Shown here in pieces: positions 11,829-26,615 of a stretch of DNA of 32,000 nt (position 1 is the first letter of the stretch; the number at the start of each line of letters is the position of its first letter). The notes under the pieces are model-generated. The model searched no databases, had not been told where the DNA came from, and worked only from the letters and a program-made list of their open reading frames with translations. The position numbers and the translations under genes are program-made. This stretch comes from Erysipelothrix inopinata (GTDB taxonomy: Bacteria; Bacillota_I; Bacilli_A; Erysipelotrichales; Erysipelotrichaceae), in contig NZ_CP060715.1 in assembly GCF_014396165.1 (NCBI RefSeq), forward strand, positions 1,410,001-1,442,000, written 5' to 3'.

Positions 11829-11857
11829 AAAAGAGCACATATTGTGCTCTTTTTTTC
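11829..11857 (+). terminator. Rho-independent terminator of the lplA-pdh cluster
   Basis: AGAGCACA (11832-11839) pairs with TGTGCTCT (11843-11850), followed by TTTTTT. Confidence 0.85.
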
Positions 11858-12149: not shown

Positions 12150-12177
12150 TTGACATTTTTTCTGAATACTATATAAT
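12150..12177 (+). promoter_or_regulatory. Sigma-A type promoter for the Opp-like operon
   Basis: TTGACA (12150-12155), a 16-nt spacer, then TATAAT (12172-12177). It lies about 50 nt upstream of the AGGAGG RBS and the ATG at 12229. Confidence 0.7.
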
Positions 12178-12228: not shown

Positions 12229-14025
12229 ATGAAAAAACTAATGCTTACATTATTAGCTTCATTACTCGTGCTAGCTGGATGTAGTTCCAAAGGGTCAGGA
12301 AATACATTAACAGTTGCTGCCCCTGACAAACTAAAAGGTGACTTTGTCGCAGGATTTAGTTCAGGAGCATACGATGCTTGGGTAATGAGATTAATGGGAA
12401 ATCTATCAACAGGAGCTTCAACACATTATGTTGATCGCGCTACTGGAGAATATAAAGTTAATCCAACAGTTGTGGAAAAACTTGACATCAAAGAAGGTGA
12501 AAATGGAAATAAAACATATTCATATACTTTGAAAGATGGACTTAAATGGTCAGATGGTGAAGCTATCACTGCAAAAGACTTCGTATTTAGCGTATTATTC
12601 CGTTCATTAGGTGAATGGCAAAATGTTGCTACAATGGATGCTGGAGCACAAGACCTACTTGGATATAAAGCATACCAAGACGGTAGTTCAAAAGAATTTG
12701 AAGGTGTTAAGTACATTGATGACAAACACTTTGAATTAACAATCGATGGTGAAAACCTTCCTTACTACTACGAACAAACATTCGCAGCAGTTACACCTGA
12801 TCCAGCACATGCTTGGATGAAGGATGCTAAATTTAATGCAAATGGTAATGGATTCGACAACACAGCAGAAGAAATTGCTGCAGGTGTTAAGAACGTTGCT
12901 GAAAAAGAACGTTATGCTCCAACAGTTACATCAGGTGCATATAAATTCGACAGCTTCAAAGATGATACAGCAGTTGTTGTGAAAAACGATAACTATGCAG
13001 GAAACTTCGAAGGCGAAAAAGCTAAAATTGATAAAATTGTAGTTCGTGTTGTATCTACAGATGTTCAAGTTCAATCCCTTGAAAAAGGTGAAATTGACAT
13101 GGCTCCAGGTATGATCGAAGGAAAACATATCAATAAAGCTAAAGAATTAGACTTACCAATGCATACTTACCCACGTAATGGATTTGGTAACATCGTATTG
13201 AAGGCAAATAAATTCCCTACAGACATTACAGAAGTACGTCAAGCAATGGGATTCTTATTAGACCGTCAAGAATTTGTTAACAACATTGCTGGTGGATATG
13301 CAAAAGTTGTTGATGGTCCTTACGGATTATCACAATGGTTCTATACAGAAAACCAAGATAAGATTGAAAGCCAACTTATCAAATATACATATAACTTAGA
13401 TGAAGCTAACAAATTGTTAGATAAAACTGAATTTATTTATGAAGCAGATGGAAAAACTCCATTTGATGCATCAAAAGCAAGTGACACAGCAGCTTACTAC
13501 CGTCATAATAAAGATGGTAAACAATTAGCTGTAAAACACTTCGGAACTGAAAAGAATGACATCTCTACATTAATCAATACACAGTTGAAACCATCAGCTG
13601 CTAAAGTAGGTATGAACTTCTCAATGGATACAGGAGATTTTGCTACACTTGGAGATTACATGCAAGGACGTAAGGAAAATGATTACAACTCATTTAACTT
13701 AGCAACATCGTTTACTGCAATTTATGATCCATATACAGGATTCCACTCTGACTGGGTTGGACGTGGTACAAACTGGTCAGACTTAGCTGATAGCGAATTG
13801 GATAACTTGATTATGTCAATGCGCCGTCACGAACCAACAGACCGTGAAGGATTCTCAGATGATGTAGTTAAATATATTGTGCGATGGAATGAATTACTTC
13901 CTTCAATTCCTCTATATTCAAATACATACCACGATATCTATGCTAAACGTGTAGAAGGTATGGATAAGATTACGCCATTACTTAACTGGGATCAAACCAT
14001 TGAATATATTTCGATAGCAAAATAA
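12229..14025 (+). CDS. ABC transporter substrate-binding lipoprotein, family 5 (OppA/DppA-like peptide binding)
   Basis: 598 aa. The signal peptide carries the lipobox LLVLAGC. Size and context fit a family-5 SBP, and it is followed by OppB, OppC, OppF and OppD homologues. Confidence 0.85.
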   Translation: MKKLMLTLLASLLVLAGCSSKGSGNTLTVAAPDKLKGDFVAGFSSGAYDAWVMRLMGNLSTGASTHYVDRATGEYKVNPTVVEKLDIKEGENGNKTYSYTLKDGLKWSDGEAITAKDFVFSVLFRSLGEWQNVATMDAGAQDLLGYKAYQDGSSKEFEGVKYIDDKHFELTIDGENLPYYYEQTFAAVTPDPAHAWMKDAKFNANGNGFDNTAEEIAAGVKNVAEKERYAPTVTSGAYKFDSFKDDTAVVVKNDNYAGNFEGEKAKIDKIVVRVVSTDVQVQSLEKGEIDMAPGMIEGKHINKAKELDLPMHTYPRNGFGNIVLKANKFPTDITEVRQAMGFLLDRQEFVNNIAGGYAKVVDGPYGLSQWFYTENQDKIESQLIKYTYNLDEANKLLDKTEFIYEADGKTPFDASKASDTAAYYRHNKDGKQLAVKHFGTEKNDISTLINTQLKPSAAKVGMNFSMDTGDFATLGDYMQGRKENDYNSFNLATSFTAIYDPYTGFHSDWVGRGTNWSDLADSELDNLIMSMRRHEPTDREGFSDDVVKYIVRWNELLPSIPLYSNTYHDIYAKRVEGMDKITPLLNWDQTIEYISIAK

Positions 14026-14100: not shown

Positions 14101-15075
14101 ATGTTAAAGTATTTAGTAAAACGAATTATTTCATTAATTCCTGTCGTGATTGTAATTTCAATCATGCTTTTCGGCTTTGTTAAAATTATGCCTGGGGATC
14201 CAGTTTTAGGAATGATGAATCCGAATATTAAAGATCCAGTTGAATATCAAGCTCAAGAAGCTCGTATTAGAGAACAACTAGGATTGGATAAATCTCTACC
14301 CGAACAATATGTTAAATGGGTAGGCAATACTGTTAAGGGAGACTTAGGGTTCTCATTATCAGAAAGAAAACCGGTTAAAGATGTTATTGGTAGACCTTTG
14401 CAGAATACTATTTCTGTAAACGTGATCGCGATTACGTTATCTTTTATCATATCGGTTATCGTTGGTATTAAATCAGCGGTTAAACGAGGCGGATGGTATG
14501 ATAAAACATGGCAAGTGCTATCAATTATTGGTATGTCTATGCCGACACTTCTTATATCGATTTTACTTATTTATGTCTTTGCAATTAAGTTAGGATGGTT
14601 CCCAACTCAAGGTATGCCTGTTCAAGGTATGACCTCTGGGTTCGCAAGCGTTGTAGAATGGATGAAATATGCAACACTAGTAATTATGACTCTAACCATT
14701 GGATCACTAGCTTCTACAATTCGTTACGTTCGTAACGCTATGATTGAAGTTCTTAATAGTGATTACATTCGTACAGCACGTGCTAAGGGACTTTCAAATA
14801 AAGTTATTATCTATTCACATGCATTTAGAAATGCTCTAATTCCTGTTGTTACAATTCTAGCAGGCTCAATTGCAGGTATCTTTGGGGGTGCCGCTATTAC
14901 TGAAAGAATTTTCTCATGGAACGGGATTGGATCTGTTCTAGTTTCTGGTATCAATAGCCGTGACTATCAGCTTGTTCTGGCAATTAACATTTTCTACGCT
15001 ATTATATCGTTAGTATCAAACGTGGTAATGGATATAGGATACGCATTAGTAGATCCACGCGTTAAATTAGATTAG
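14101..15075 (+). CDS. Peptide ABC transporter permease, OppB/DppB-like
   Basis: 324 aa. It has the N-terminal MLKYLVKRIISLIPVVIVISIMLF, the EAA-loop region DYIRTARAKGLSNKVIIYSHAFRNALIP, and six hydrophobic segments. Confidence 0.9.
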   Translation: MLKYLVKRIISLIPVVIVISIMLFGFVKIMPGDPVLGMMNPNIKDPVEYQAQEARIREQLGLDKSLPEQYVKWVGNTVKGDLGFSLSERKPVKDVIGRPLQNTISVNVIAITLSFIISVIVGIKSAVKRGGWYDKTWQVLSIIGMSMPTLLISILLIYVFAIKLGWFPTQGMPVQGMTSGFASVVEWMKYATLVIMTLTIGSLASTIRYVRNAMIEVLNSDYIRTARAKGLSNKVIIYSHAFRNALIPVVTILAGSIAGIFGGAAITERIFSWNGIGSVLVSGINSRDYQLVLAINIFYAIISLVSNVVMDIGYALVDPRVKLD

Positions 15076-15088
15076 GAAGAGGAAAGTT

Positions 15089-16969
15089 ATGAAAGATAAT
15101 AAAAAACCAGGAATTTGGTCAAGTATTAAATCCATGTTCTCTTCATTATTCTCATTTGGACGAAATAAAAGTGAAAAAGAATTGGAAGAAATGATTGCAT
15201 CGGATGATTTCGTTGTCAGTCCAACAAAACAGATAATTAAAAACTTCTTTAGCAATAAACTTGGGGTAACAGGACTTGTAGCATTTATCTTGATTTTTGT
15301 TACAGTCTTCGGTGTTGCAGCTACACAAGATTACAATATGTATGATTATGAGCCACTCTTAAAAAATATGGCTCCTGGCCGTAATTACCTAAAAGTTGAT
15401 AGTAACTTACAAGGTAAAAATATTGTTGAAATATCAAGTGGTTCATCATTTTCTGTAGCACTTGATGATCAAGGTAAAGTTTACTTCTGGGGTCAAAACC
15501 CATCAAAACGTTATAAACTTGATTCAATCCTTGATAAAACAAAAGGTAAGAAAATCAAACATATTTCAGCTGGTACTGATCATATTATTGCAGTAGCAGA
15601 GGACAATAGCATTATTGGTGTTGGTAACCGATCATTTAATCAAACTGAATTAAATATTGAAGTTCTAGATTCAAAGGTACAACAACAATTAAGAAATAAA
15701 AATATTGTTAAAGTGGGCGCAGCTCAAGAAATTTCTGTAATCTTAACTGAAGATGGATTCATTCATCCTTGGGGAAGTACAATGAATAGTGGATTGGATT
15801 CAATCCCTGATGAGTATCAAGGTCATGTTAAAGACTTTGAAATTGCACCTTATAGTATTATTCTTACCTTAGATAATAACTCACTTGCAGTTATTGGTAA
15901 CCAATCGAACGAGGTTGCTGCTATTCCTGCTGAACTGAAATCAGGAGAAGTTAATGTCGTAGACGTTAAAATTTCCGGAACTTCAGCAATTGCAGTTGAT
16001 GATCAAGGAAAAATGTACACTTGGGGATCAGGTCAAAAAGGAATGTTAACACTTCCTGATTTTGATTCTAAAGTTGTATCACTAACTAAAACACAAGCTA
16101 CTTTTAATGCTTTAACAGAAAAAGGAACAGTATACTCATGGGGAGCTGATAGATACGGACTTCTTGATGTTCCTACAAAAGTACAAGGAAGTACCAAAGA
16201 AATCTATTCTGATATGTTCCAAATGTATGCAGTTGATGGTTCTAATAACGTAACTAGCTGGGGTAACAAAGGATTCTTACTGGGTTCTGATGACTTCGGA
16301 CGTGATTTAGCAGAACGATTAATTCAAGGTGGTAAGATTTCGTTAACAGTTGGTGCTGTTGCGATGTTAATTTCTACAATTCTTGGTGTGCTTGTTGGAT
16401 TAATTGCTGGGTATTATGGTGGCCGTGTTGACAATATCTTAATGCGTTTCGCAGAAATTGTGAGCTCTTTCCCATTCCTACCATTAGCAATTACGCTCTC
16501 GTCATTAATGCCTACTGACATGCCGGATATTCAACGTATTGGTATGATCATGGTTATTCAAGGGGTTCTCTCTTGGCCAGGAGTAGCGCGTCTTGTTCGT
16601 GGGCAAATTCTTGCAGAACGTGAGAAAGACTTTGTTCTTGCTGCGCGTGCTCTAGGTATCAAAGAAAACAAAATATTAATCAAACATATCCTTCCAAGTG
16701 TCTTCAACTTCATTATTGTAAGTATGACATTGGGTTATGCGTCGAGTCTTCTATCTGAAGCAGGACTTTCATTCTTAGGATTTGGTGTTCGTGTTCCGGC
16801 TCCATCATGGGGTAACATGCTTACAAACGTAGCGAACACAACAGTTATTGAATATTATTGGTGGCAATGGTTGTTACCTGCTCTGTGTGTTATGTTAACG
16901 GCTCTGTCTGTTAACTTGATTGGTGATGCATTACGAGACGCAATGGATCCAAAATCGAATCAGAAATAG
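15089..16969 (+). CDS. OppC/DppC-like ABC permease carrying a ~300-aa RCC1-like repeat (beta-propeller) insertion in the first extracytoplasmic loop
   Basis: 626 aa. TM1 is about aa 58-78. Seven repeats follow with ...AG/SG..h.hAh.DdG.hY.WG... signatures (aa ~110-395). Then come the canonical LLGSDDFGRDLAERL motif, five TM segments and the EAA-type FVLAARALGIKENKILIKHILP. Confidence 0.85.
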   Translation: MKDNKKPGIWSSIKSMFSSLFSFGRNKSEKELEEMIASDDFVVSPTKQIIKNFFSNKLGVTGLVAFILIFVTVFGVAATQDYNMYDYEPLLKNMAPGRNYLKVDSNLQGKNIVEISSGSSFSVALDDQGKVYFWGQNPSKRYKLDSILDKTKGKKIKHISAGTDHIIAVAEDNSIIGVGNRSFNQTELNIEVLDSKVQQQLRNKNIVKVGAAQEISVILTEDGFIHPWGSTMNSGLDSIPDEYQGHVKDFEIAPYSIILTLDNNSLAVIGNQSNEVAAIPAELKSGEVNVVDVKISGTSAIAVDDQGKMYTWGSGQKGMLTLPDFDSKVVSLTKTQATFNALTEKGTVYSWGADRYGLLDVPTKVQGSTKEIYSDMFQMYAVDGSNNVTSWGNKGFLLGSDDFGRDLAERLIQGGKISLTVGAVAMLISTILGVLVGLIAGYYGGRVDNILMRFAEIVSSFPFLPLAITLSSLMPTDMPDIQRIGMIMVIQGVLSWPGVARLVRGQILAEREKDFVLAARALGIKENKILIKHILPSVFNFIIVSMTLGYASSLLSEAGLSFLGFGVRVPAPSWGNMLTNVANTTVIEYYWWQWLLPALCVMLTALSVNLIGDALRDAMDPKSNQK

Positions 16970-17003: not shown

Positions 17004-18497
17004 ATGGGGTTCTACATGACAGATAAATTAGATAACGATGTACTTTTAAAAGTAGAACATTTACAAAAGTATTTTCCAATTAAAAAATCGAGTGTATTCC
17101 AACGTCGTCAAGATTATGTAAAGGCGAACAAGGACATTACAGTAAATATTCATAAAGGTGAAACATTAGGACTTGTTGGTGAATCCGGATGTGGTAAATC
17201 AACATTTGGTCGTACATTAATTCAACTTTATGATCAAACCGGTGGTGTATCTCTATACTACGGTGAAAAGATTGAAGACATGATGCCTACATATGTTGGT
17301 AAAGTGTATAAATCAATTCCTAAGGTATTCGTAAAACATGATGCTGACTATGCTGCCTTAAAGGTATGCCAAGAAGCTATTGTTGGTAAATCAGGTGAAG
17401 AATTTCTTGAAGCAAATGAAGCTTTAAGATTGAAAACGATTGAGTACGAAAACACATACGGAAATATTTTCCGTCTTGCTGGAGGATTACTCGTAAGTAA
17501 AGATTTAAATGCTGTAAGTTCACTTCTTCTTAAGAAATATAATAAGGGGAGTGTTCTTGCAAAACTTAATAAAGAAATTGACTTAGAAAAGATGAGAGCA
17601 AGTGTACATGGCGAAGAATCTACAAAGAAATTAGAAGAACTTCGTGGTAATGCTGAAAATGCTAAAAAGGAATTGGATCTTGTGAATGCTGAAGTTGAAG
17701 CATTTAAAGAACCACTTAGAAGTCATGCTCAATTTGATGAGTATGAAGCACTTCTTGATGATGGTATTGATTTATCATGCCTTAATAAAAAAGAAATGCG
17801 ATTCTTACGTAAAGACTTACAAATTATTTTCCAAGATCCATATTCATCACTTGATCCACGTTTAACTGTAGGAAATATCATTGGTGAAGGTCTCATTGCT
17901 CACAAAATCTTTAAGAGTAATAAGAGTGAAGGATATACTGAATACATTCAAGATATCATGGAAAAATGTGGTCTCAAGAAAGAATTTATTCACCGTTTCC
18001 CTCACCAGTTCTCTGGTGGACAACGTCAAAGAATCGGGATTGCTCGTGCTTTAGCACTTCGTCCTAAATTCATTGTATGTGATGAAGCGGTTAGTGCATT
18101 GGACGTATCCATCCAATCACAAGTTATTAACTTATTACAAGATCTTAAAGACGAACACAATTTAACATACCTTTTCATTACTCATGACTTGGGTGTTGTA
18201 CGTTTTATTAGTGACCGTATTGGTGTTATGTATTTTGGTAACTTAGTAGAACTTGCTCCTGCTCAGGATATCTTTACAAATCCACAACATCCTTATACTA
18301 AAGAATTATTGGCTGCGATTCCAAGAATGGAAAAAGACCAAGCAGAGATTGAGAAACTTTTAGTTAAAGTTGATAATCCTGATTTTGACTTTACATTTAA
18401 AGAAACTGGTGAAGCAGATAAAGACTGGCATGAAGTATCTCCTGGACACTTTGTTGCATGTCGACTCTTAAATCACAGTGTTAAGGGAGGAAAGTAA
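17004..18497 (+). CDS. Peptide ABC transporter ATP-binding protein, OppF-like, with a ~170-aa internal insertion
   Basis: It has Walker A GESGCGKST, signature FSGGQRQR, Walker B FIVCDEAVSALD, H-loop FITHDL, and an oligopeptide-type C-terminal HPYTKELL. A K/E-rich block at aa ~88-255 separates the Walker A region from the QIIFQDPYSSL Q-loop. The true start is more likely the ATG at 17016 (MTDKLDN). Confidence 0.9.
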   Translation: MGFYMTDKLDNDVLLKVEHLQKYFPIKKSSVFQRRQDYVKANKDITVNIHKGETLGLVGESGCGKSTFGRTLIQLYDQTGGVSLYYGEKIEDMMPTYVGKVYKSIPKVFVKHDADYAALKVCQEAIVGKSGEEFLEANEALRLKTIEYENTYGNIFRLAGGLLVSKDLNAVSSLLLKKYNKGSVLAKLNKEIDLEKMRASVHGEESTKKLEELRGNAENAKKELDLVNAEVEAFKEPLRSHAQFDEYEALLDDGIDLSCLNKKEMRFLRKDLQIIFQDPYSSLDPRLTVGNIIGEGLIAHKIFKSNKSEGYTEYIQDIMEKCGLKKEFIHRFPHQFSGGQRQRIGIARALALRPKFIVCDEAVSALDVSIQSQVINLLQDLKDEHNLTYLFITHDLGVVRFISDRIGVMYFGNLVELAPAQDIFTNPQHPYTKELLAAIPRMEKDQAEIEKLLVKVDNPDFDFTFKETGEADKDWHEVSPGHFVACRLLNHSVKGGK

Positions 18498-18498
18498 G

Positions 18499-19452
18499 AT
18501 GAGTTTATTAGAAGTTAAAAACCTACATACCTACTTTGATACCAAACGTGGACTTGTTAAAGCGGTTAACGGTGTTTCTTTCTCAGTTGATGAGGGAAGA
18601 ACATTAGGAATCGTTGGTGAATCCGGTAGTGGAAAGAGCCAAACTGCAATGTCTATTCTTCAATTATTTGAATCTAATCAAAAAATCTATGATGGTGAAA
18701 TTATCTTTGATGGTGAAGTTATTTCTAAATATAACGAAAACCAATTAAGAAAAATTCGTGGTAATGATATCTCAATGATATTCCAAGAACCAATGACAAG
18801 TTTGAATCCTGTATTTACAGTTGAAAAACAAATCAGTGAAGTATTGATTCTTCACCAAGGAATGACCAAGAAAGAAGCATCTGTTAAATCAAAAGAGATG
18901 CTTGAAGCAGTTAAGATTCCTAATGCAGAACGCGTATTGAAATCGTATCCTCACCAACTTTCTGGTGGTATGAGTCAACGTGTTATGATTGCGATGGCAT
19001 TAGCATGTAATCCTCGTATTCTTATTGCTGACGAGCCAACGACAGCATTGGATGTTATCATTCAAGCTGAAATTTTAAAGTTGATGAATGATCTTAAAAC
19101 AAACTTTAAGACTTCAATTCTATTTATCACTCACGACTTAGGTGTTATTAGCCAAATGGCTGATGATGTTATTGTTATGTATGGTGGTAAAATTGTTGAA
19201 GCAGCTCCAATCATGTCAATTTTCAAGGATGCACGTCATCCTTATACAAAGCGTCTTATGGCAGCTTTCTTAAAGACTGACATCAATAGTCGTAAAGACC
19301 ACGATCAAGTCGCACCGGACCTCTATGAGGCTGAGAACGAAGTATTTGACTTCAAGAACTTCAGAGAGAACGGTGTTGCTGACTCAGATTGGCATCAAGT
19401 TGCTGATAATCACTTTGTAGCTGTAAACTTATTAAATAAAGAAAATGTTTAA
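18499..19452 (+). CDS. Peptide ABC transporter ATP-binding protein, OppD-like
   Basis: I prefer the ATG at 18499 (MSLLEVKNLHTYF...) after GGGAGG, rather than the track start at 18478. It has Walker A GESGSGKSQ, signature LSGGMSQR, Walker B ILIADEPTTALD, and HPYTKRLM. Confidence 0.9.
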   Translation: MSLLEVKNLHTYFDTKRGLVKAVNGVSFSVDEGRTLGIVGESGSGKSQTAMSILQLFESNQKIYDGEIIFDGEVISKYNENQLRKIRGNDISMIFQEPMTSLNPVFTVEKQISEVLILHQGMTKKEASVKSKEMLEAVKIPNAERVLKSYPHQLSGGMSQRVMIAMALACNPRILIADEPTTALDVIIQAEILKLMNDLKTNFKTSILFITHDLGVISQMADDVIVMYGGKIVEAAPIMSIFKDARHPYTKRLMAAFLKTDINSRKDHDQVAPDLYEAENEVFDFKNFRENGVADSDWHQVADNHFVAVNLLNKENV

Positions 19453-19630
19453 GTATCGAAAAAAGAAACTACTCACTGAGGAAGAAATCGATGCAAAGTT
19501 CAAAGATGTTGAACTTGAGAAAAATGACACTAAAGCAATGATTATTGCGGCACTGATAACGTTTTTACCAGTGATGGTCATGTTGATGGTTATCTTCTAT
19601 GGAGCAATATGGTTAATATTCATGCGTTAA
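19445..19630 (+). CDS. Small (61 aa) single-TM protein translationally coupled to the last Opp ATPase gene
   Basis: Its ATG overlaps the OppD-like stop (ATGTTTAA). It has a charged N-terminal half (KKKLLTEEEIDAKFKDVELEKNDTK) and a hydrophobic C-terminal helix. The operon terminator follows this ORF rather than the ATPase gene. There is no clear SD sequence. Confidence 0.45.
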   Translation: MFKYRKKKLLTEEEIDAKFKDVELEKNDTKAMIIAALITFLPVMVMLMVIFYGAIWLIFMR

Positions 19631-19636
19631 ACTAAA

Positions 19637-19676
19637 AACGAGCACTTATCGTCAATCGATAGGTGCTCGTTTCTTA
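19637..19676. terminator. Bidirectional rho-independent terminator between convergent operons
   Basis: A 15-bp stem pairs AACGAGCACTTATCG (19637-19651) with CGATAGGTGCTCGTT (19657-19671), with one G-U pair. T-rich tracts flank it on both strands. Confidence 0.85.
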
Positions 19677-19991
19677 TTTGAAGATTACTTCAGGATAACT
19701 AACTTTAAGTGTTTTCGCAAAGTTTTGATATTGATGCTGAGAGATTGAGTGATTCATGTTTTCATTGATTGTGTATTTAATTGTCTTAGAATGCGTAACA
19801 ATCTTTAACTTGCGAACCATGTTACTCTGTTCAAAAGGTGTACTCATTTCAATCTTTGTAATATTTGTATAGTTATAGCGAGTATCATTTATTTTAATTC
19901 CGTTTTCTAATACTTCGAAAGTTACTTTCTTTCGTGTTCCAATCAGAAACAGTACGATTGCAACCATGAACAAAACAAGAATTATCATCAT
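19674..19991 (-). CDS. Hypothetical membrane-anchored protein (105 aa), N-terminal TM plus a small soluble domain
   Basis: The ORF starts 5 nt downstream of the 371-aa gene stop. It has the TM helix MMIILVLFMVAIVLFLIG followed by a beta-rich-looking domain. I recognise no motif. Confidence 0.5.
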   Translation of the reverse strand: MMIILVLFMVAIVLFLIGTRKKVTFEVLENGIKINDTRYNYTNITKIEMSTPFEQSNMVRKLKIVTHSKTIKYTINENMNHSISQHQYQNFAKTLKVSYPEVIFK

Positions 19992-19996
19992 TACGA

Positions 19997-21112
19997 TTAA
20001 GTATGAAAAATCGAGTCTCCCAAAAATAATTGGGAGAAGATCGCAAGTGGTAATAAGGTGAATACTGATAGTAAGAATATAACGGTATTACGAGATTGTT
20101 GTGCTTTAAAAGTGAATTTTGTAGAAAGCGTTTCACGACTTTCATGGTCATCAAGTAAATGAGTAGATTGGTCATCAAGAAGCTGAATAAAGTTCAGGTA
20201 TTGAAGATCACCCAGAGGAATAAAATCTATGTTTATACCCGTTGTTCTGTGTTCCTTAGTATCAAGCGTAACGGTGAGTACAGTATACGTACTGGAACCA
20301 GCATGAGCATTTCGAATTGCCTTATACGAATAAACAACTTCTGATAACGGTGCATAGAAGAGTATTTCATTTTTATCTATAACCTCAAGAGTGCCATTTT
20401 CAACTTTGATTTGAAGGGAAGGTGTTAAGAACTCATAAAGTGATAATCCAATGAATCCAAGACTAAGAAGTCCAAATCCGCCCCACATTAGTGTTATGTC
20501 AGTGAATGAGTCAATGAATGATAAAAAGTCAAACCCTAATATGGATACAATCGCAATAATACCGATTGAGCATAGGAATACGATGCTGAGTCTATTAAAT
20601 ACGTTGAGAGTTTTCTGTGCATTGGATTTATAAAAGGTTACTTGATGTTCTTTCTTGAGATTGTGACGAACGATGATTTCTAGAGCAAGTGAAATCACGT
20701 TGATTGAGATTGTGATGATTGCACCTAATCCAACGGTACTCCACCCATTTAAATGTGAAAAGTCTCGATATAGAAGAAAAGAATCAAGATTGGCATTGTA
20801 TTCAATGGTAAAACTTCCATTATCGATATCGGTGAATGTAAATCCATTTTCAAAGGTTAATATTTCACCATCAATTAAAAAACTTAGATTGTCATAGGTT
20901 TTATCTGATTGTATACGAACAGGATTGGTGATGTTGTTGGCATCATCAATAGAAGAAATCGTAATATACTTTCCTGGATAAACATCAAAATACGAATAAG
21001 ACGTATCAACGAAGTCAAACTGTGTTTTAACTCCAGAGAAGGAAAGGGTGAGGATTGCGAGAACAATCCAAATCAATTTGTTTGCAAGTCGGAATGAATA
21101 TGAATTTTTCAT
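19997..21112 (-). CDS. Hypothetical polytopic membrane protein (371 aa)
   Basis: It has an AAGGAG RBS, an N-terminal signal/anchor (LIWIVLAILTLSFSG), a ~100-aa extracytoplasmic domain, several TM helices, a soluble insert and a C-terminal TM. I recognise no family. Confidence 0.7.
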   Translation of the reverse strand: MKNSYSFRLANKLIWIVLAILTLSFSGVKTQFDFVDTSYSYFDVYPGKYITISSIDDANNITNPVRIQSDKTYDNLSFLIDGEILTFENGFTFTDIDNGSFTIEYNANLDSFLLYRDFSHLNGWSTVGLGAIITISINVISLALEIIVRHNLKKEHQVTFYKSNAQKTLNVFNRLSIVFLCSIGIIAIVSILGFDFLSFIDSFTDITLMWGGFGLLSLGFIGLSLYEFLTPSLQIKVENGTLEVIDKNEILFYAPLSEVVYSYKAIRNAHAGSSTYTVLTVTLDTKEHRTTGINIDFIPLGDLQYLNFIQLLDDQSTHLLDDHESRETLSTKFTFKAQQSRNTVIFLLSVFTLLPLAIFSQLFLGDSIFHT

Positions 21113-25303: not shown

Positions 25304-25337
25304 GCTCCATCACATTAATTTGTGGTGGAGCTTTTTA
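25304..25337 (+). terminator. Inward-facing rho-independent terminator inside the IS end
   Basis: GCTCCATCAC (25304-25313) pairs with GTGGTGGAGC (25322-25331), followed by TTTTT. It is oriented to stop plus-strand transcription entering from the ABC exporter operon, and it overlaps the transposase stop codon. Confidence 0.55.
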
Positions 25338-26615
25338 TAATTGTAATGGTAACATTGTGTTGCTTATAAGTAAAACTCTCGCTCTAAAATTTGTGAATGA
25401 TCGATACCCGAATGCAATTCTCTTAATTACTTTTATTAAGTTATTAGTACCTTCTAATTTTCCGTTTGAGTATTCATAAGTAAGTGCATTAAGTATCGAT
25501 GTTTTATGATAGTTGAATGTATTGATTGTGGTTTGAATCGTCTTGGGTAGATGTTTGTAATTCTTGGATATTAAGTCTTCGAAATAGTCTATTTGCCTGT
25601 TATTGATAGAGAGCCGTATTCGCTGCATTAACCAATAACACTCTTCGAGTTCTTTTGAAGATCTCAAGAGTTCATCGACGACCTGTTGTTCAGTCATAAG
25701 ATGAGGGAAACACTTAAAGTGCTTATATTCTTTGTCATCTAAATCATCTTGAGTCATCATTAAGAGTTTCCAATACTTCTTCAATTTAGAGTAGTATTGT
25801 TTATTCTCTTTCATAACTTGCGTCCTTACAGAGTTGAATGATCGATTAATAAGCTGAACGACATGGAATCTATCGGTAATTATTTTAGCGTTAGGGAAAC
25901 AGGACTTTACGAGGTCGATATATCCTTTAAACATATCCATAGAAACAGTCTCTACTTGTTTTCTAACTTCAAGAGGGAATGAAAAGAAATAAGACTTGAG
26001 GAAACCAATATGACGATGCGTAAGGATATCCAGTATCTTACCTGTATCAGCGTCTGTAAAAATAAATGACATCTTACCCTTAACCTCTTTAACTGACTTA
26101 AACTCATCGAAGGATAGGTTCTTGGGCAAGGAATTGTGAGGTTGAATAAACTTTGAATTGATATTTGTGATCCAAGAGTTAATGGTAGTGTGAGAGATAT
26201 TATTACTCTTTGATATATCCCAAACAGAACGTTTTGTCTTAATTTCTAAAAGTACTTTATGATAGGTGTTCTTGGATATGGAGCAGTTTTTATCAACTAG
26301 GTTTGTTTGAGAGATAAATGTATGCGAACACATCTTGCAGTAATAGCGTTGTTTTTTAAGTTTTAAGTAGGTTGTGAAATTAGAACACTTTGGAAGTTTA
26401 ATTGTGACAGACTTAGTTCCGTTTTTAATAATAGAGTTATCTTGATTAATGCAACCACATTTTGTGCAATAATCGGGATGATCCGGAGAGTGTGTAGCGT
26501 ATACAACGTGAGATAAAACTCCTTTTATGACTTCTTGTTGAACACTTTCATCTGAAAAATGTATGGATTTGTCTTTAATATTAAGTAAAATTCGTGTATT
26601 ATTTTGATTGGACAT
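25335..26615 (-). CDS. ISL3-family transposase
   Basis: 426 aa. It has N-terminal zinc-finger-like CTKCGC...CKMCSH, then DRFHVVQLINR and the C-terminal NGKLEGTNNLIKVIKRIAFGYRSFTNFRARVLL, which are characteristic of ISL3 (IS1167/IS1165-like) transposases. Confidence 0.92.
   Translation of the reverse strand: MSNQNNTRILLNIKDKSIHFSDESVQQEVIKGVLSHVVYATHSPDHPDYCTKCGCINQDNSIIKNGTKSVTIKLPKCSNFTTYLKLKKQRYYCKMCSHTFISQTNLVDKNCSISKNTYHKVLLEIKTKRSVWDISKSNNISHTTINSWITNINSKFIQPHNSLPKNLSFDEFKSVKEVKGKMSFIFTDADTGKILDILTHRHIGFLKSYFFSFPLEVRKQVETVSMDMFKGYIDLVKSCFPNAKIITDRFHVVQLINRSFNSVRTQVMKENKQYYSKLKKYWKLLMMTQDDLDDKEYKHFKCFPHLMTEQQVVDELLRSSKELEECYWLMQRIRLSINNRQIDYFEDLISKNYKHLPKTIQTTINTFNYHKTSILNALTYEYSNGKLEGTNNLIKVIKRIAFGYRSFTNFRARVLLISNTMLPLQL

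Follow-up and report, generated by a model that had tools for sequence, protein, structure and literature searches.

Oligopeptide and dipeptide permeases (Opp and Dpp) count among the most thoroughly studied transporters of bacteria. They supply Gram-positive bacteria that are auxotrophic for amino acids, and they also import signalling peptides and cell-wall peptides. In ATP-binding cassette (ABC) importers, a permease may carry a folded domain of its own on the outer face of the membrane. OpuA and GlnPQ, for example, are permeases fused to substrate-binding domains. Here we describe another arrangement, found in a window of 32,000 nucleotides of Erysipelothrix inopinata DNA (contig NZ_CP060715.1, positions 1,410,001 to 1,442,000 of the forward strand; all coordinates below are those of the window). 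Its opp operon encodes an OppC permease with a predicted seven-bladed beta-propeller built into what should be its first outer loop.

The closest described systems come from two fields. Among transporters, the P2 loop of MalF in the E. coli maltose importer MalFGK2-E is a 186-residue immunoglobulin (Ig)-like domain between transmembrane helices TM3 and TM4; it projects ~3 nm outward, binds MalE with a Kd of 7-22 uM and stays bound to it through the cycle (PMC6906923). The MalE-MalF fusion of Bdellovibrio carries an outer domain covalently on the importer permease (PMC6906923). In cryo-EM structures of E. coli DppBCDF and DppABCDF, the TM1-TM2 region is periplasmic; in DppB this region forms the scoop motif, a ~30-residue helix pair whose loop is disordered unless DppA is present; the motif reaches into the cleft of DppA and closes off the outward-facing cavity (PMC12136057). 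Among propellers, RCC1 and BLIP-II belong to one lineage that is mostly bacterial (PMC9218822), and the BLIP-II/CRINKLY4 type has three strands per blade instead of four (PMC4617170). The ectodomain of the plant receptor kinase CRINKLY4 (ACR4) consists of seven RCC1/BLIP-II-like repeats of ~39 residues, modelled as a propeller with three strands per blade (PMC4617170).

How does the window OppC compare? Its parts are as follows.

15089..16969, plus strand: oppC, the whole gene of the 626-residue permease with its propeller insert (reading frame, Pfam, NCBIfam, homologues, model, Foldseek)
15266..15322, plus strand: TM1 of OppC, residues 60-78 (Kyte-Doolittle peak 2.59; model helix 57-79; preceded by a K/R-rich cytoplasmic N-terminus)
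15410..16273, plus strand: predicted seven-bladed beta-propeller of the RCC1_2/BLIP-II type, residues 108-395, expected to be extracytoplasmic (Pfam RCC1_2; model; Foldseek; boundaries from the alignment)
16274..16966, plus strand: permease core, residues 396-626, with the LGSDDFGRD motif, TM2-TM6 and the coupling helix (Pfam BPD_transp_1; NCBIfam Opp4C; Foldseek)

The gene is a single unbroken frame. The protein begins with a cytoplasmic N-terminus (10 lysines and arginines in residues 1-57), passes through TM1 into the propeller (residues ~108-395) and ends in a normal OppC core, where hydropathy places TM2 at residues 421-439. Pfam finds RCC1 and RCC1_2 between OppC_N and BPD_transp_1, as a reading of the sequence alone had foreseen. 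The OppC_N match (residues 44-96, E 6e-5) is marginal at 23.3 bits against a cutoff of 23.9; the same domain is matched in 44 of 48 members of the propeller-OppC family, with a best E of 6e-11. BPD_transp_1 is matched over residues 433-622 with E 1e-30 and 107 bits (cutoff 26.4). The best NCBIfam model is Opp4C (E 2.9e-92, 308.9 bits), which stays under its equivalog cutoff of 350. None of the named NCBIfam equivalog cutoffs (Opp4C, OppC, DppC, NikC and others) is reached, all but Opp4C being far off, so we treat this OppC as a distinct subfamily rather than a named orthologue. In a Foldseek search of the PDB, the core matches E. coli DppC and OppC and M. tuberculosis OppC and DppC with TM-scores on target of 0.70-0.73, 0.72 being the value for the E. 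coli proteins, and 32-42% identity.

The insertion is clean. In an alignment with canonical OppCs of 297-344 residues (from Bacillus, Staphylococcus, Chloroflexota and a Mollicutes metagenome-assembled genome, or MAG), the window protein reads '...APG-[~297 aa]-KGF-LGSDDFGRD' where the others read '...PS-xx-(H)W-LGTDxxGRD'. Just 2-4 residues, immediately before the membrane-proximal LGxDxxGRD motif, are replaced. The sequence-only reading had described a 626-residue protein with a continuous frame and an intact core, which the open reading frame (ORF), Pfam and Foldseek bear out, and an insert between TM1 and the LGxDxxGRD motif, which hydropathy and the alignment confirm. The coordinates that it gave for the insert, 15386-16273 (residues 100-395), are essentially correct, and all seven repeats that it listed are present.

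Because the solved Dpp structures show the TM1-TM2 region on the periplasmic side (PMC12136057) and the N-terminus before TM1 is rich in lysine and arginine, the propeller should, by analogy, be extracytoplasmic and lie in the first outer loop of OppC, facing outward as had been proposed. Its site is pseudo-symmetric to that of the DppB scoop motif. An Omnitrophota MAG encodes a 363-residue OppC with ~60 extra residues at the same place (locus L037, 2224-3315), and the TM1-TM2 site of OppC may be a general insertion hotspot.

What kind of domain is it? Pfam matches RCC1_2 in four stretches (E 6.7e-21, 73.9 bits, cutoff 22) and RCC1 with E 5.4e-12 and 46.5 bits (cutoff 21.7). WD40_RLD is matched over residues 106-330 (E 1.6e-31) at 110.4 bits, under its curated cutoff of 150, and the match covers only positions 138-340 of the 363-position model. 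Two further matches in the same scan, to a lactophage receptor-binding head domain (E 0.006) and to Tectonin (E 0.06), were dismissed as noise. An AlphaFold2 model built from an alignment of 48 homologues has a mean pLDDT (predicted local distance difference test) of 86.7 and a pTM (predicted TM-score) of 0.78. The propeller blocks reach a pLDDT of ~90-96 and form seven sets of three strands, predicting a closed seven-bladed propeller. The blades end at W134, G178, W228, G270, W312, W351 and W391 and are 31-50 residues long. Their mean identity to one another is 24%, which points to an old, differentiated propeller rather than a recent amplification. The domain is acidic (pI 5.3) and has no cysteine. 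Its short connectors, residues 80-110 and 393-400, are modelled with high pLDDT; with the pTM of the two-domain model, they argue for a propeller that is fixed rather than tethered.

In the Foldseek search the top matches of the propeller are BLIP-II structures (3qi0, 3qhy and 1jtd; E 3.7e-18 to 5e-17, TM-scores on target 0.73-0.83), followed by UVR8, the RCC1-like domain of RPGR, WBSCR16, HERC2 and RCC1. Structure prediction therefore gives the propeller signal that had been expected. The part of the earlier description that called it a seven-bladed RCC1-type propeller stands. The model refines the type: the predicted fold is the compact bacterial BLIP-II kind with three strands per blade, in agreement with the published BLIP-II/CRINKLY4 type, and not the larger eukaryotic RCC1 kind.

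The same architecture is widespread. A search with OppC in 5.8 billion proteins returned 436 matches, and we examined the best 120 clusters. All of these are full length (604-632 residues, 93-100% query cover, 45-100% identity) and carry RCC1-type and BPD_transp_1 Pfam domains; their source annotation is merely 'ABC transporter permease subunit' or 'peptide/nickel transport system permease'. Every one of the 48 aligned homologues matches RCC1_2, WD40_RLD and BPD_transp_1. Named hosts include Erysipelothrix rhusiopathiae, E. urinaevulpis, E. larvae, Erysipelothrix sp. HDW6C and Anaerorhabdus, and a scan of species-representative genomes adds three species of Anaerococcus, Sellimonas intestinalis, Candidatus Scatosoma and Oscillospiraceae and Eubacteriales MAGs. 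The hosts thus span three classes of Bacillota: Erysipelotrichia, Tissierellia and Clostridia. The window OppC is at most 61% identical to those of named species. In Erysipelothrix sp. HDW6C a canonical Opp system exists beside one of the propeller type, which points to a specialised rather than a generic role for the latter.

The genome scan also found a 5'-truncated copy in a MAG labelled Treponemataceae (L010, 6-788). It is 57% identical to the window protein from residue 366 of the latter on, the last blade included, and is followed by a short OppF and then by the small ORF described below with the operon. Either the propeller Opp system crossed phyla or the contig is mis-binned.

Such a fusion could in principle be an artefact of assembly or annotation, or a decaying gene. 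We found nothing in support of this beyond the fact that a 100% identical OppC occurs, among the matches listed, in only one other public assembly. The frame is unbroken, the G+C content of the insert (0.33-0.39) equals that of its flanks and is uniform over the junctions, and the fold is predicted with confidence. At least 120 clusters share the architecture, and they include complete Erysipelothrix chromosomes of 1.8-2.5 Mb. Those of E. rhusiopathiae are syntenic with the window through lplA, the pyruvate dehydrogenase (PDH) genes E1ab-E2-E3, the opp operon, a MarR gene and two ABC exporter genes. An artefact has next to no probability, and for practical purposes this explanation is refuted.

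In a neighbour-joining tree of the OppC core region only (47 taxa, 60 bootstraps), the propeller OppCs form one clade in 44 of 60 replicates; together with a propeller-less sister from a Mollicutes MAG (L012) they do so in 60 of 60. This is consistent with a single acquisition of the propeller, followed by long retention and some horizontal spread. A search with the propeller alone in a representative library of 1.84 billion proteins was dominated by giant multi-RCC1 proteins and contained two OppC fusions (P0189 and P0255); neither the donor of the insert nor a count of fusion clusters was obtained from it.

Conservation within the family is uneven. Mean pairwise identity is 40% in the propeller, 43% in the TM1 region and 68% in the permease core. 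The full propeller is retained in 48 of 48 aligned homologues, and the lack of truncated or partial propellers among full-length genes indicates that the fold is under selection. The invariant positions are nearly all structural glycine, tryptophan or proline. A variable surface on a structurally fixed scaffold speaks against a pocket conserved for a small ligand and suits a partner which varies as well. The least conserved Opp subunit is OppA, with 27-58% identity.

These features lead us to favour, tentatively and at somewhat less than an even chance, the view that the propeller acts as a fixed clamp to which the lipoprotein OppA docks. It would be a built-in docking module beside the OppA landing site on OppB/OppC, where it would hold or orient the lipid-anchored OppA. 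Alternatively, it might wall off the cavity between OppA and OppBC on the OppC side, complementing the OppB scoop motif opposite. In either case, peptides released by OppA would enter the channel rather than being lost by diffusion from a cell without a periplasm. This would be the job that MalF P2 does for MalE, done with a different fold in a different loop. Several observations support docking. The insert has an intact frame, the expected domain order and tight boundaries. The fold nearest to it is that of BLIP-II, which has been solved in complex with class A beta-lactamases, bound at picomolar strength (PMC9218822), and the next matches, UVR8 and RPGR, have likewise been solved with partner proteins. 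The site is apt as well, being pseudo-symmetric to a DppB motif that contacts the binding protein, and MalF P2 shows that a domain borne by a permease is able to hold its binding protein all through the cycle. The full propeller is kept in at least 120 clusters over three Bacillota classes, and its carriers form one clade. Finally, the propeller and OppA are both variable, and the adjacent oppA is constant.

Other observations weigh against it. Mirror-tree analysis detected no specific co-variation of propeller and OppA (partial r 0.1-0.2, not significant) and a modest, non-specific one of the propeller with OppB and TM1 (partial r 0.35-0.55), in a sample of 13 non-independent operons with near-saturated distances. 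The OppAs of propeller operons have no dedicated extra contact domain, just scattered small indels. Canonical Opp works without a propeller, the paralogue in Erysipelothrix sp. HDW6C included. Moreover, our evidence concerns the anatomy and conservation of the domain, from which we infer both its partner and its effect on transport.

The absence of specific co-variation with OppA would suit a different partner. The propeller might recruit another extracellular protein to the mouth of the importer, such as a secreted or wall-anchored peptidase, a penicillin-binding protein (PBP) or other enzyme of beta-lactamase fold, or a host protein, so that peptide production or the release of cell-wall peptides is coupled to uptake. 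BLIP-II, the best structural match, was solved with enzymes of beta-lactamase fold; a variable surface is what one expects of a protein-protein interface; and the coexistence of canonical and propeller Opp in one genome suggests a specialised role. However, identity to BLIP-II is just 22-24%, and in the loci examined there is no conserved secreted peptidase or PBP gene beside the operon, the neighbours varying by lineage (PDH, V-ATPase, or cytoplasmic-type M3/S9 peptidases). We regard recruitment as doubtful, though worth keeping in mind.

Could the ligand be a polymer instead of a protein? As an envelope tether or spacer, the propeller would attach to a wall polymer such as peptidoglycan or teichoic acid and position the transporter in or under the wall. 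The domain is, as argued above, extracytoplasmic, and the lineages are Gram-positive. RCC1_2 repeats abound in giant bacterial proteins (28,324 representative proteins at E <= 0.001); that these giants are surface proteins is assumed from their size and repeat content. There is also the weak Tectonin-like match (E 0.06), which lies far under threshold, and no wall-binding motif is recognisable in the propeller. A polymer ligand should leave conserved aromatic or charged surface residues, whereas conservation here is nearly all in structural G, W and P. We consider a tether improbable.

The preferred docking reading concerns OppA, and the rest of the operon deserves the same scrutiny. Its genes and signals are listed here.

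11829-11853: terminator-like hairpin of the upstream PDH operon
12150..12177, plus strand: sigma-70-type promoter-like site upstream of oppA, TTGACA-16-TATAAT (agrees with all 12 consensus positions of 12 and scores highest in the region; judged by consensus only)
12229..14025, plus strand: oppA, family-5 solute-binding lipoprotein of 598 residues with the lipobox LLVLAG-C (Pfam SBP_bac_5, E 3.1e-47)
14101..15075, plus strand: oppB, canonical 324-residue permease (Pfam BPD_transp_1, E 6.3e-39; BPD_transp_1_N, E 6.6e-10)
17004..18497, plus strand: oppF, 497-residue ATPase with a helical insert of ~170 residues (Pfam ABC_tran in two stretches, oligo_HPY)
17250-17762, plus strand: the OppF insert of ~170 residues, residues 83-253 (skipped in alignments to solved OppF/OppD)
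18478..19452, plus strand: oppD, ATPase, with its listed GTG start at 18478 (Pfam ABC_tran, E 1.3e-30)
19445..19630, plus strand: conserved ORF of 61 residues, overlapping the end of oppD (hidden Markov model, or HMM, from five copies)
19636..19672, plus strand: terminator-like hairpin closing the operon (16-pair stem with 7 G-C pairs, then a T-rich tail)

The operon thus reads oppA-oppB-oppC-oppF-oppD plus a small membrane-protein gene. The product of the last of these has a basic N-terminus and a single C-terminal TM helix as well as the motif EKxDxxAMIIAA, and it belongs to no Pfam or NCBIfam family. A search with its HMM locates the ORF immediately behind the final ATPase gene in 15 propeller-type loci, one of them the window itself, and also in L012, the sister locus without a propeller. 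No match turned up in ~68 canonical Opp loci or in L086-L088 and L009. By this distribution the ORF marks the Opp subfamily and not the propeller itself. The 61-residue protein may be an extra subunit of this subfamily. It has a place in a further reading to which we give a slim chance: the propeller would be an independent receptor for a folded protein or other large ligand, whether this stems from the host, from a competitor or from the wall of the cell itself. It would then gate the ATPase cycle, so that the importer is a 'transceptor', or feed a second route of substrate selection independent of OppA, with the 61-residue protein as the extra subunit.

OppF is also enlarged. Its insert is modelled (pLDDT 87.4) as four long helices, residues 96-126, 131-164, 168-201 and 208-240, and structure comparison found no solved nucleotide-binding domain that covers it. 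In a full-length search the long OppF is widespread, with more than 100 clusters of 476-507 residues; a search with the insert alone returned no matches despite these, which looks like a limit of the word index. In NCBIfam the window OppF also matches the family of the long OppF of the minimal mycoplasma (MMSYN1_0168).

The window carries both elaborations, as do 8 of the first 10 propeller loci examined. The sequence-only reading had joined the two as halves of one co-evolved, non-canonical Opp machine. This claim does not survive. Homologous long OppFs of 476-496 residues, 55-62% identical to the window OppF over 96-98% of the query, accompany an ordinary OppC of 295-300 residues in three independent loci (Atopostipes suicloacalis, the second operon of Erysipelothrix sp. 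HDW6C, and L088). Conversely, a propeller OppC occurs with a short OppF of 333-338 residues in L005, L010 and L083. The OppF insert is therefore independent of the propeller. Moreover, each side of the membrane has one of the two inserts. A common machine is very improbable.

Gene order tells a related story. The window, Erysipelothrix (L001, L081) and the canonical long-OppF operons L086-L088 have their ATPase genes in the order F-D; all other propeller-type operons compared (L003-L011, L083-L085) have D-F. The window OppF is 62% identical to the paralogue from the canonical operon of Erysipelothrix sp. HDW6C and 51% identical to the long OppF of Anaerococcus. Together, order and identities hint that the ATPase gene pair may have been exchanged between paralogous operons.

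What does the operon import? Pfam recognises a family-5 binding protein, OppB and two oligo_HPY ATPases, and the same operon is present in 13 related loci; oppA adjoins the propeller oppC in every locus examined. The OppA signal peptide and Cys19 can be read straight from the sequence, and its best solved relatives are the peptide-binding OppA 9p48 (E 4e-26) and Lmo0135. Cytoplasmic-type peptidase genes (M3, S9, M29) flank some propeller loci, which is consistent with peptide uptake. No Rfam match to a riboswitch or leader RNA that would hint at the substrate occurs anywhere in the window. On the strength of its gene content, peptide import is a reasonable default.

Some details of these loci may be recorded. 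In L083 (1165-4980), the propeller opp genes of the most abundant, 618-residue cluster are immediately preceded by genes for Peptidase_M3 (PepF-like) and Peptidase_S9, and in L084 a Peptidase_M29 gene (17608-17899) lies near a propeller-type operon. The Anaerococcus loci L003, L004 and L006 encode OppAs of 740-757 residues, compared with ~600, and OppCs of 653-659 residues with a longer N-terminus; L003 has two tandem oppA genes. Both window ATPases lack the cysteine clusters that bind [4Fe-4S] in E. coli DppD/F, by direct reading against the published account (PMC12136057). As listed, with its GTG start, oppD overlaps oppF by 20 nucleotides. An ATG at 18499, two bases past the oppF stop (18497), is probably the true start, since homologue alignments begin at residue 8 of the listed protein. 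Between the operon and the MarR gene lie two convergent hydrophobic ORFs of 105 and 371 residues (19674-19991 and 19997-21112, both on the minus strand); neither has a Pfam match, and both are absent from the otherwise syntenic region of E. rhusiopathiae (L081). An ISL3-family transposase gene (25335-26615, minus strand; DDE_Tnp_ISL3, E 7.8e-56) is found downstream of the pair of ABC exporter genes.

How new is this architecture? A full-text literature search combining RCC1 with OppC, ABC permease, oligopeptide permease, Erysipelothrix or extracytoplasmic domain returned nothing on it, and the propeller OppC appears never to have been studied. As to whether it forms an already common and characterised family, it is common in databases (at least 120 clusters, three classes) yet uncharacterised. 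The earlier statement that no importer permease with a built-in propeller was known agrees with the literature search; a built-in outer domain as such has a precedent in MalF P2. The beta-propeller, its insertion site and the associated small membrane protein are new, and a permease-borne outer domain is known from MalF P2 and from fusions to substrate-binding proteins (SBPs).

The finding matters because a conserved, surface-exposed domain of 290 residues on the permease adds an unexamined layer to the outer face of the transporter, where docking, sealing, recruitment or regulation could be its job. The hosts include the animal and human pathogen Erysipelothrix rhusiopathiae as well as gut and skin commensals (Anaerococcus, Sellimonas), so the domain is within experimental reach, and it is a possible surface antigen or target for phages or antibodies. 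A second, non-homologous case beside MalF P2 also makes it testable why some importers carry their own docking domain. If the independent-receptor reading were true, type I ABC importers would gain a new principle of regulation or selection; should the propeller not turn out to be such a receptor or a regulator, no new principle is involved.

Set beside the known systems, the window OppC shares with canonical OppC and DppC a core (residues 396-626) that holds BPD_transp_1 and the LGxDxxGRD motif, and it stands in an operon with the customary A, B, C, D and F genes; it differs in that those proteins have ~300 residues in all and only a few at the insertion site. The DppB scoop motif occupies the pseudo-symmetric position in the partner permease, but it is not an autonomous domain of 290 residues. 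BLIP-II of Streptomyces exfoliatus resembles the propeller in its seven blades, RCC1-like repeats of ~40 residues and three strands per blade (PMC4617170, PMC9218822), and it too is a bacterial, extracellular, protein-binding scaffold. It is, however, a free secreted protein, 22-24% identical, and the likeness is one of fold only. CRINKLY4 likewise displays a propeller outside on a membrane protein, but it is eukaryotic, its propeller is N-terminal on a single-pass kinase and its cysteines are regularly spaced, whereas the OppC propeller is free of cysteine and lies inside a polytopic transporter. In the SBP-permease fusions the attached domain is the SBP itself; in OppC the insert is a beta-propeller and a separate oppA is kept. 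MalF P2, too, is an extra folded domain placed in an outer loop of the permease of a type I ABC importer. This domain belongs to a sugar importer, is Ig-like and is not homologous to the ~290-residue propeller between TM1 and TM2 of OppC. By analogy, with SBP binding by the propeller still putative, MalF P2 would be the best functional analogue for the role proposed here.

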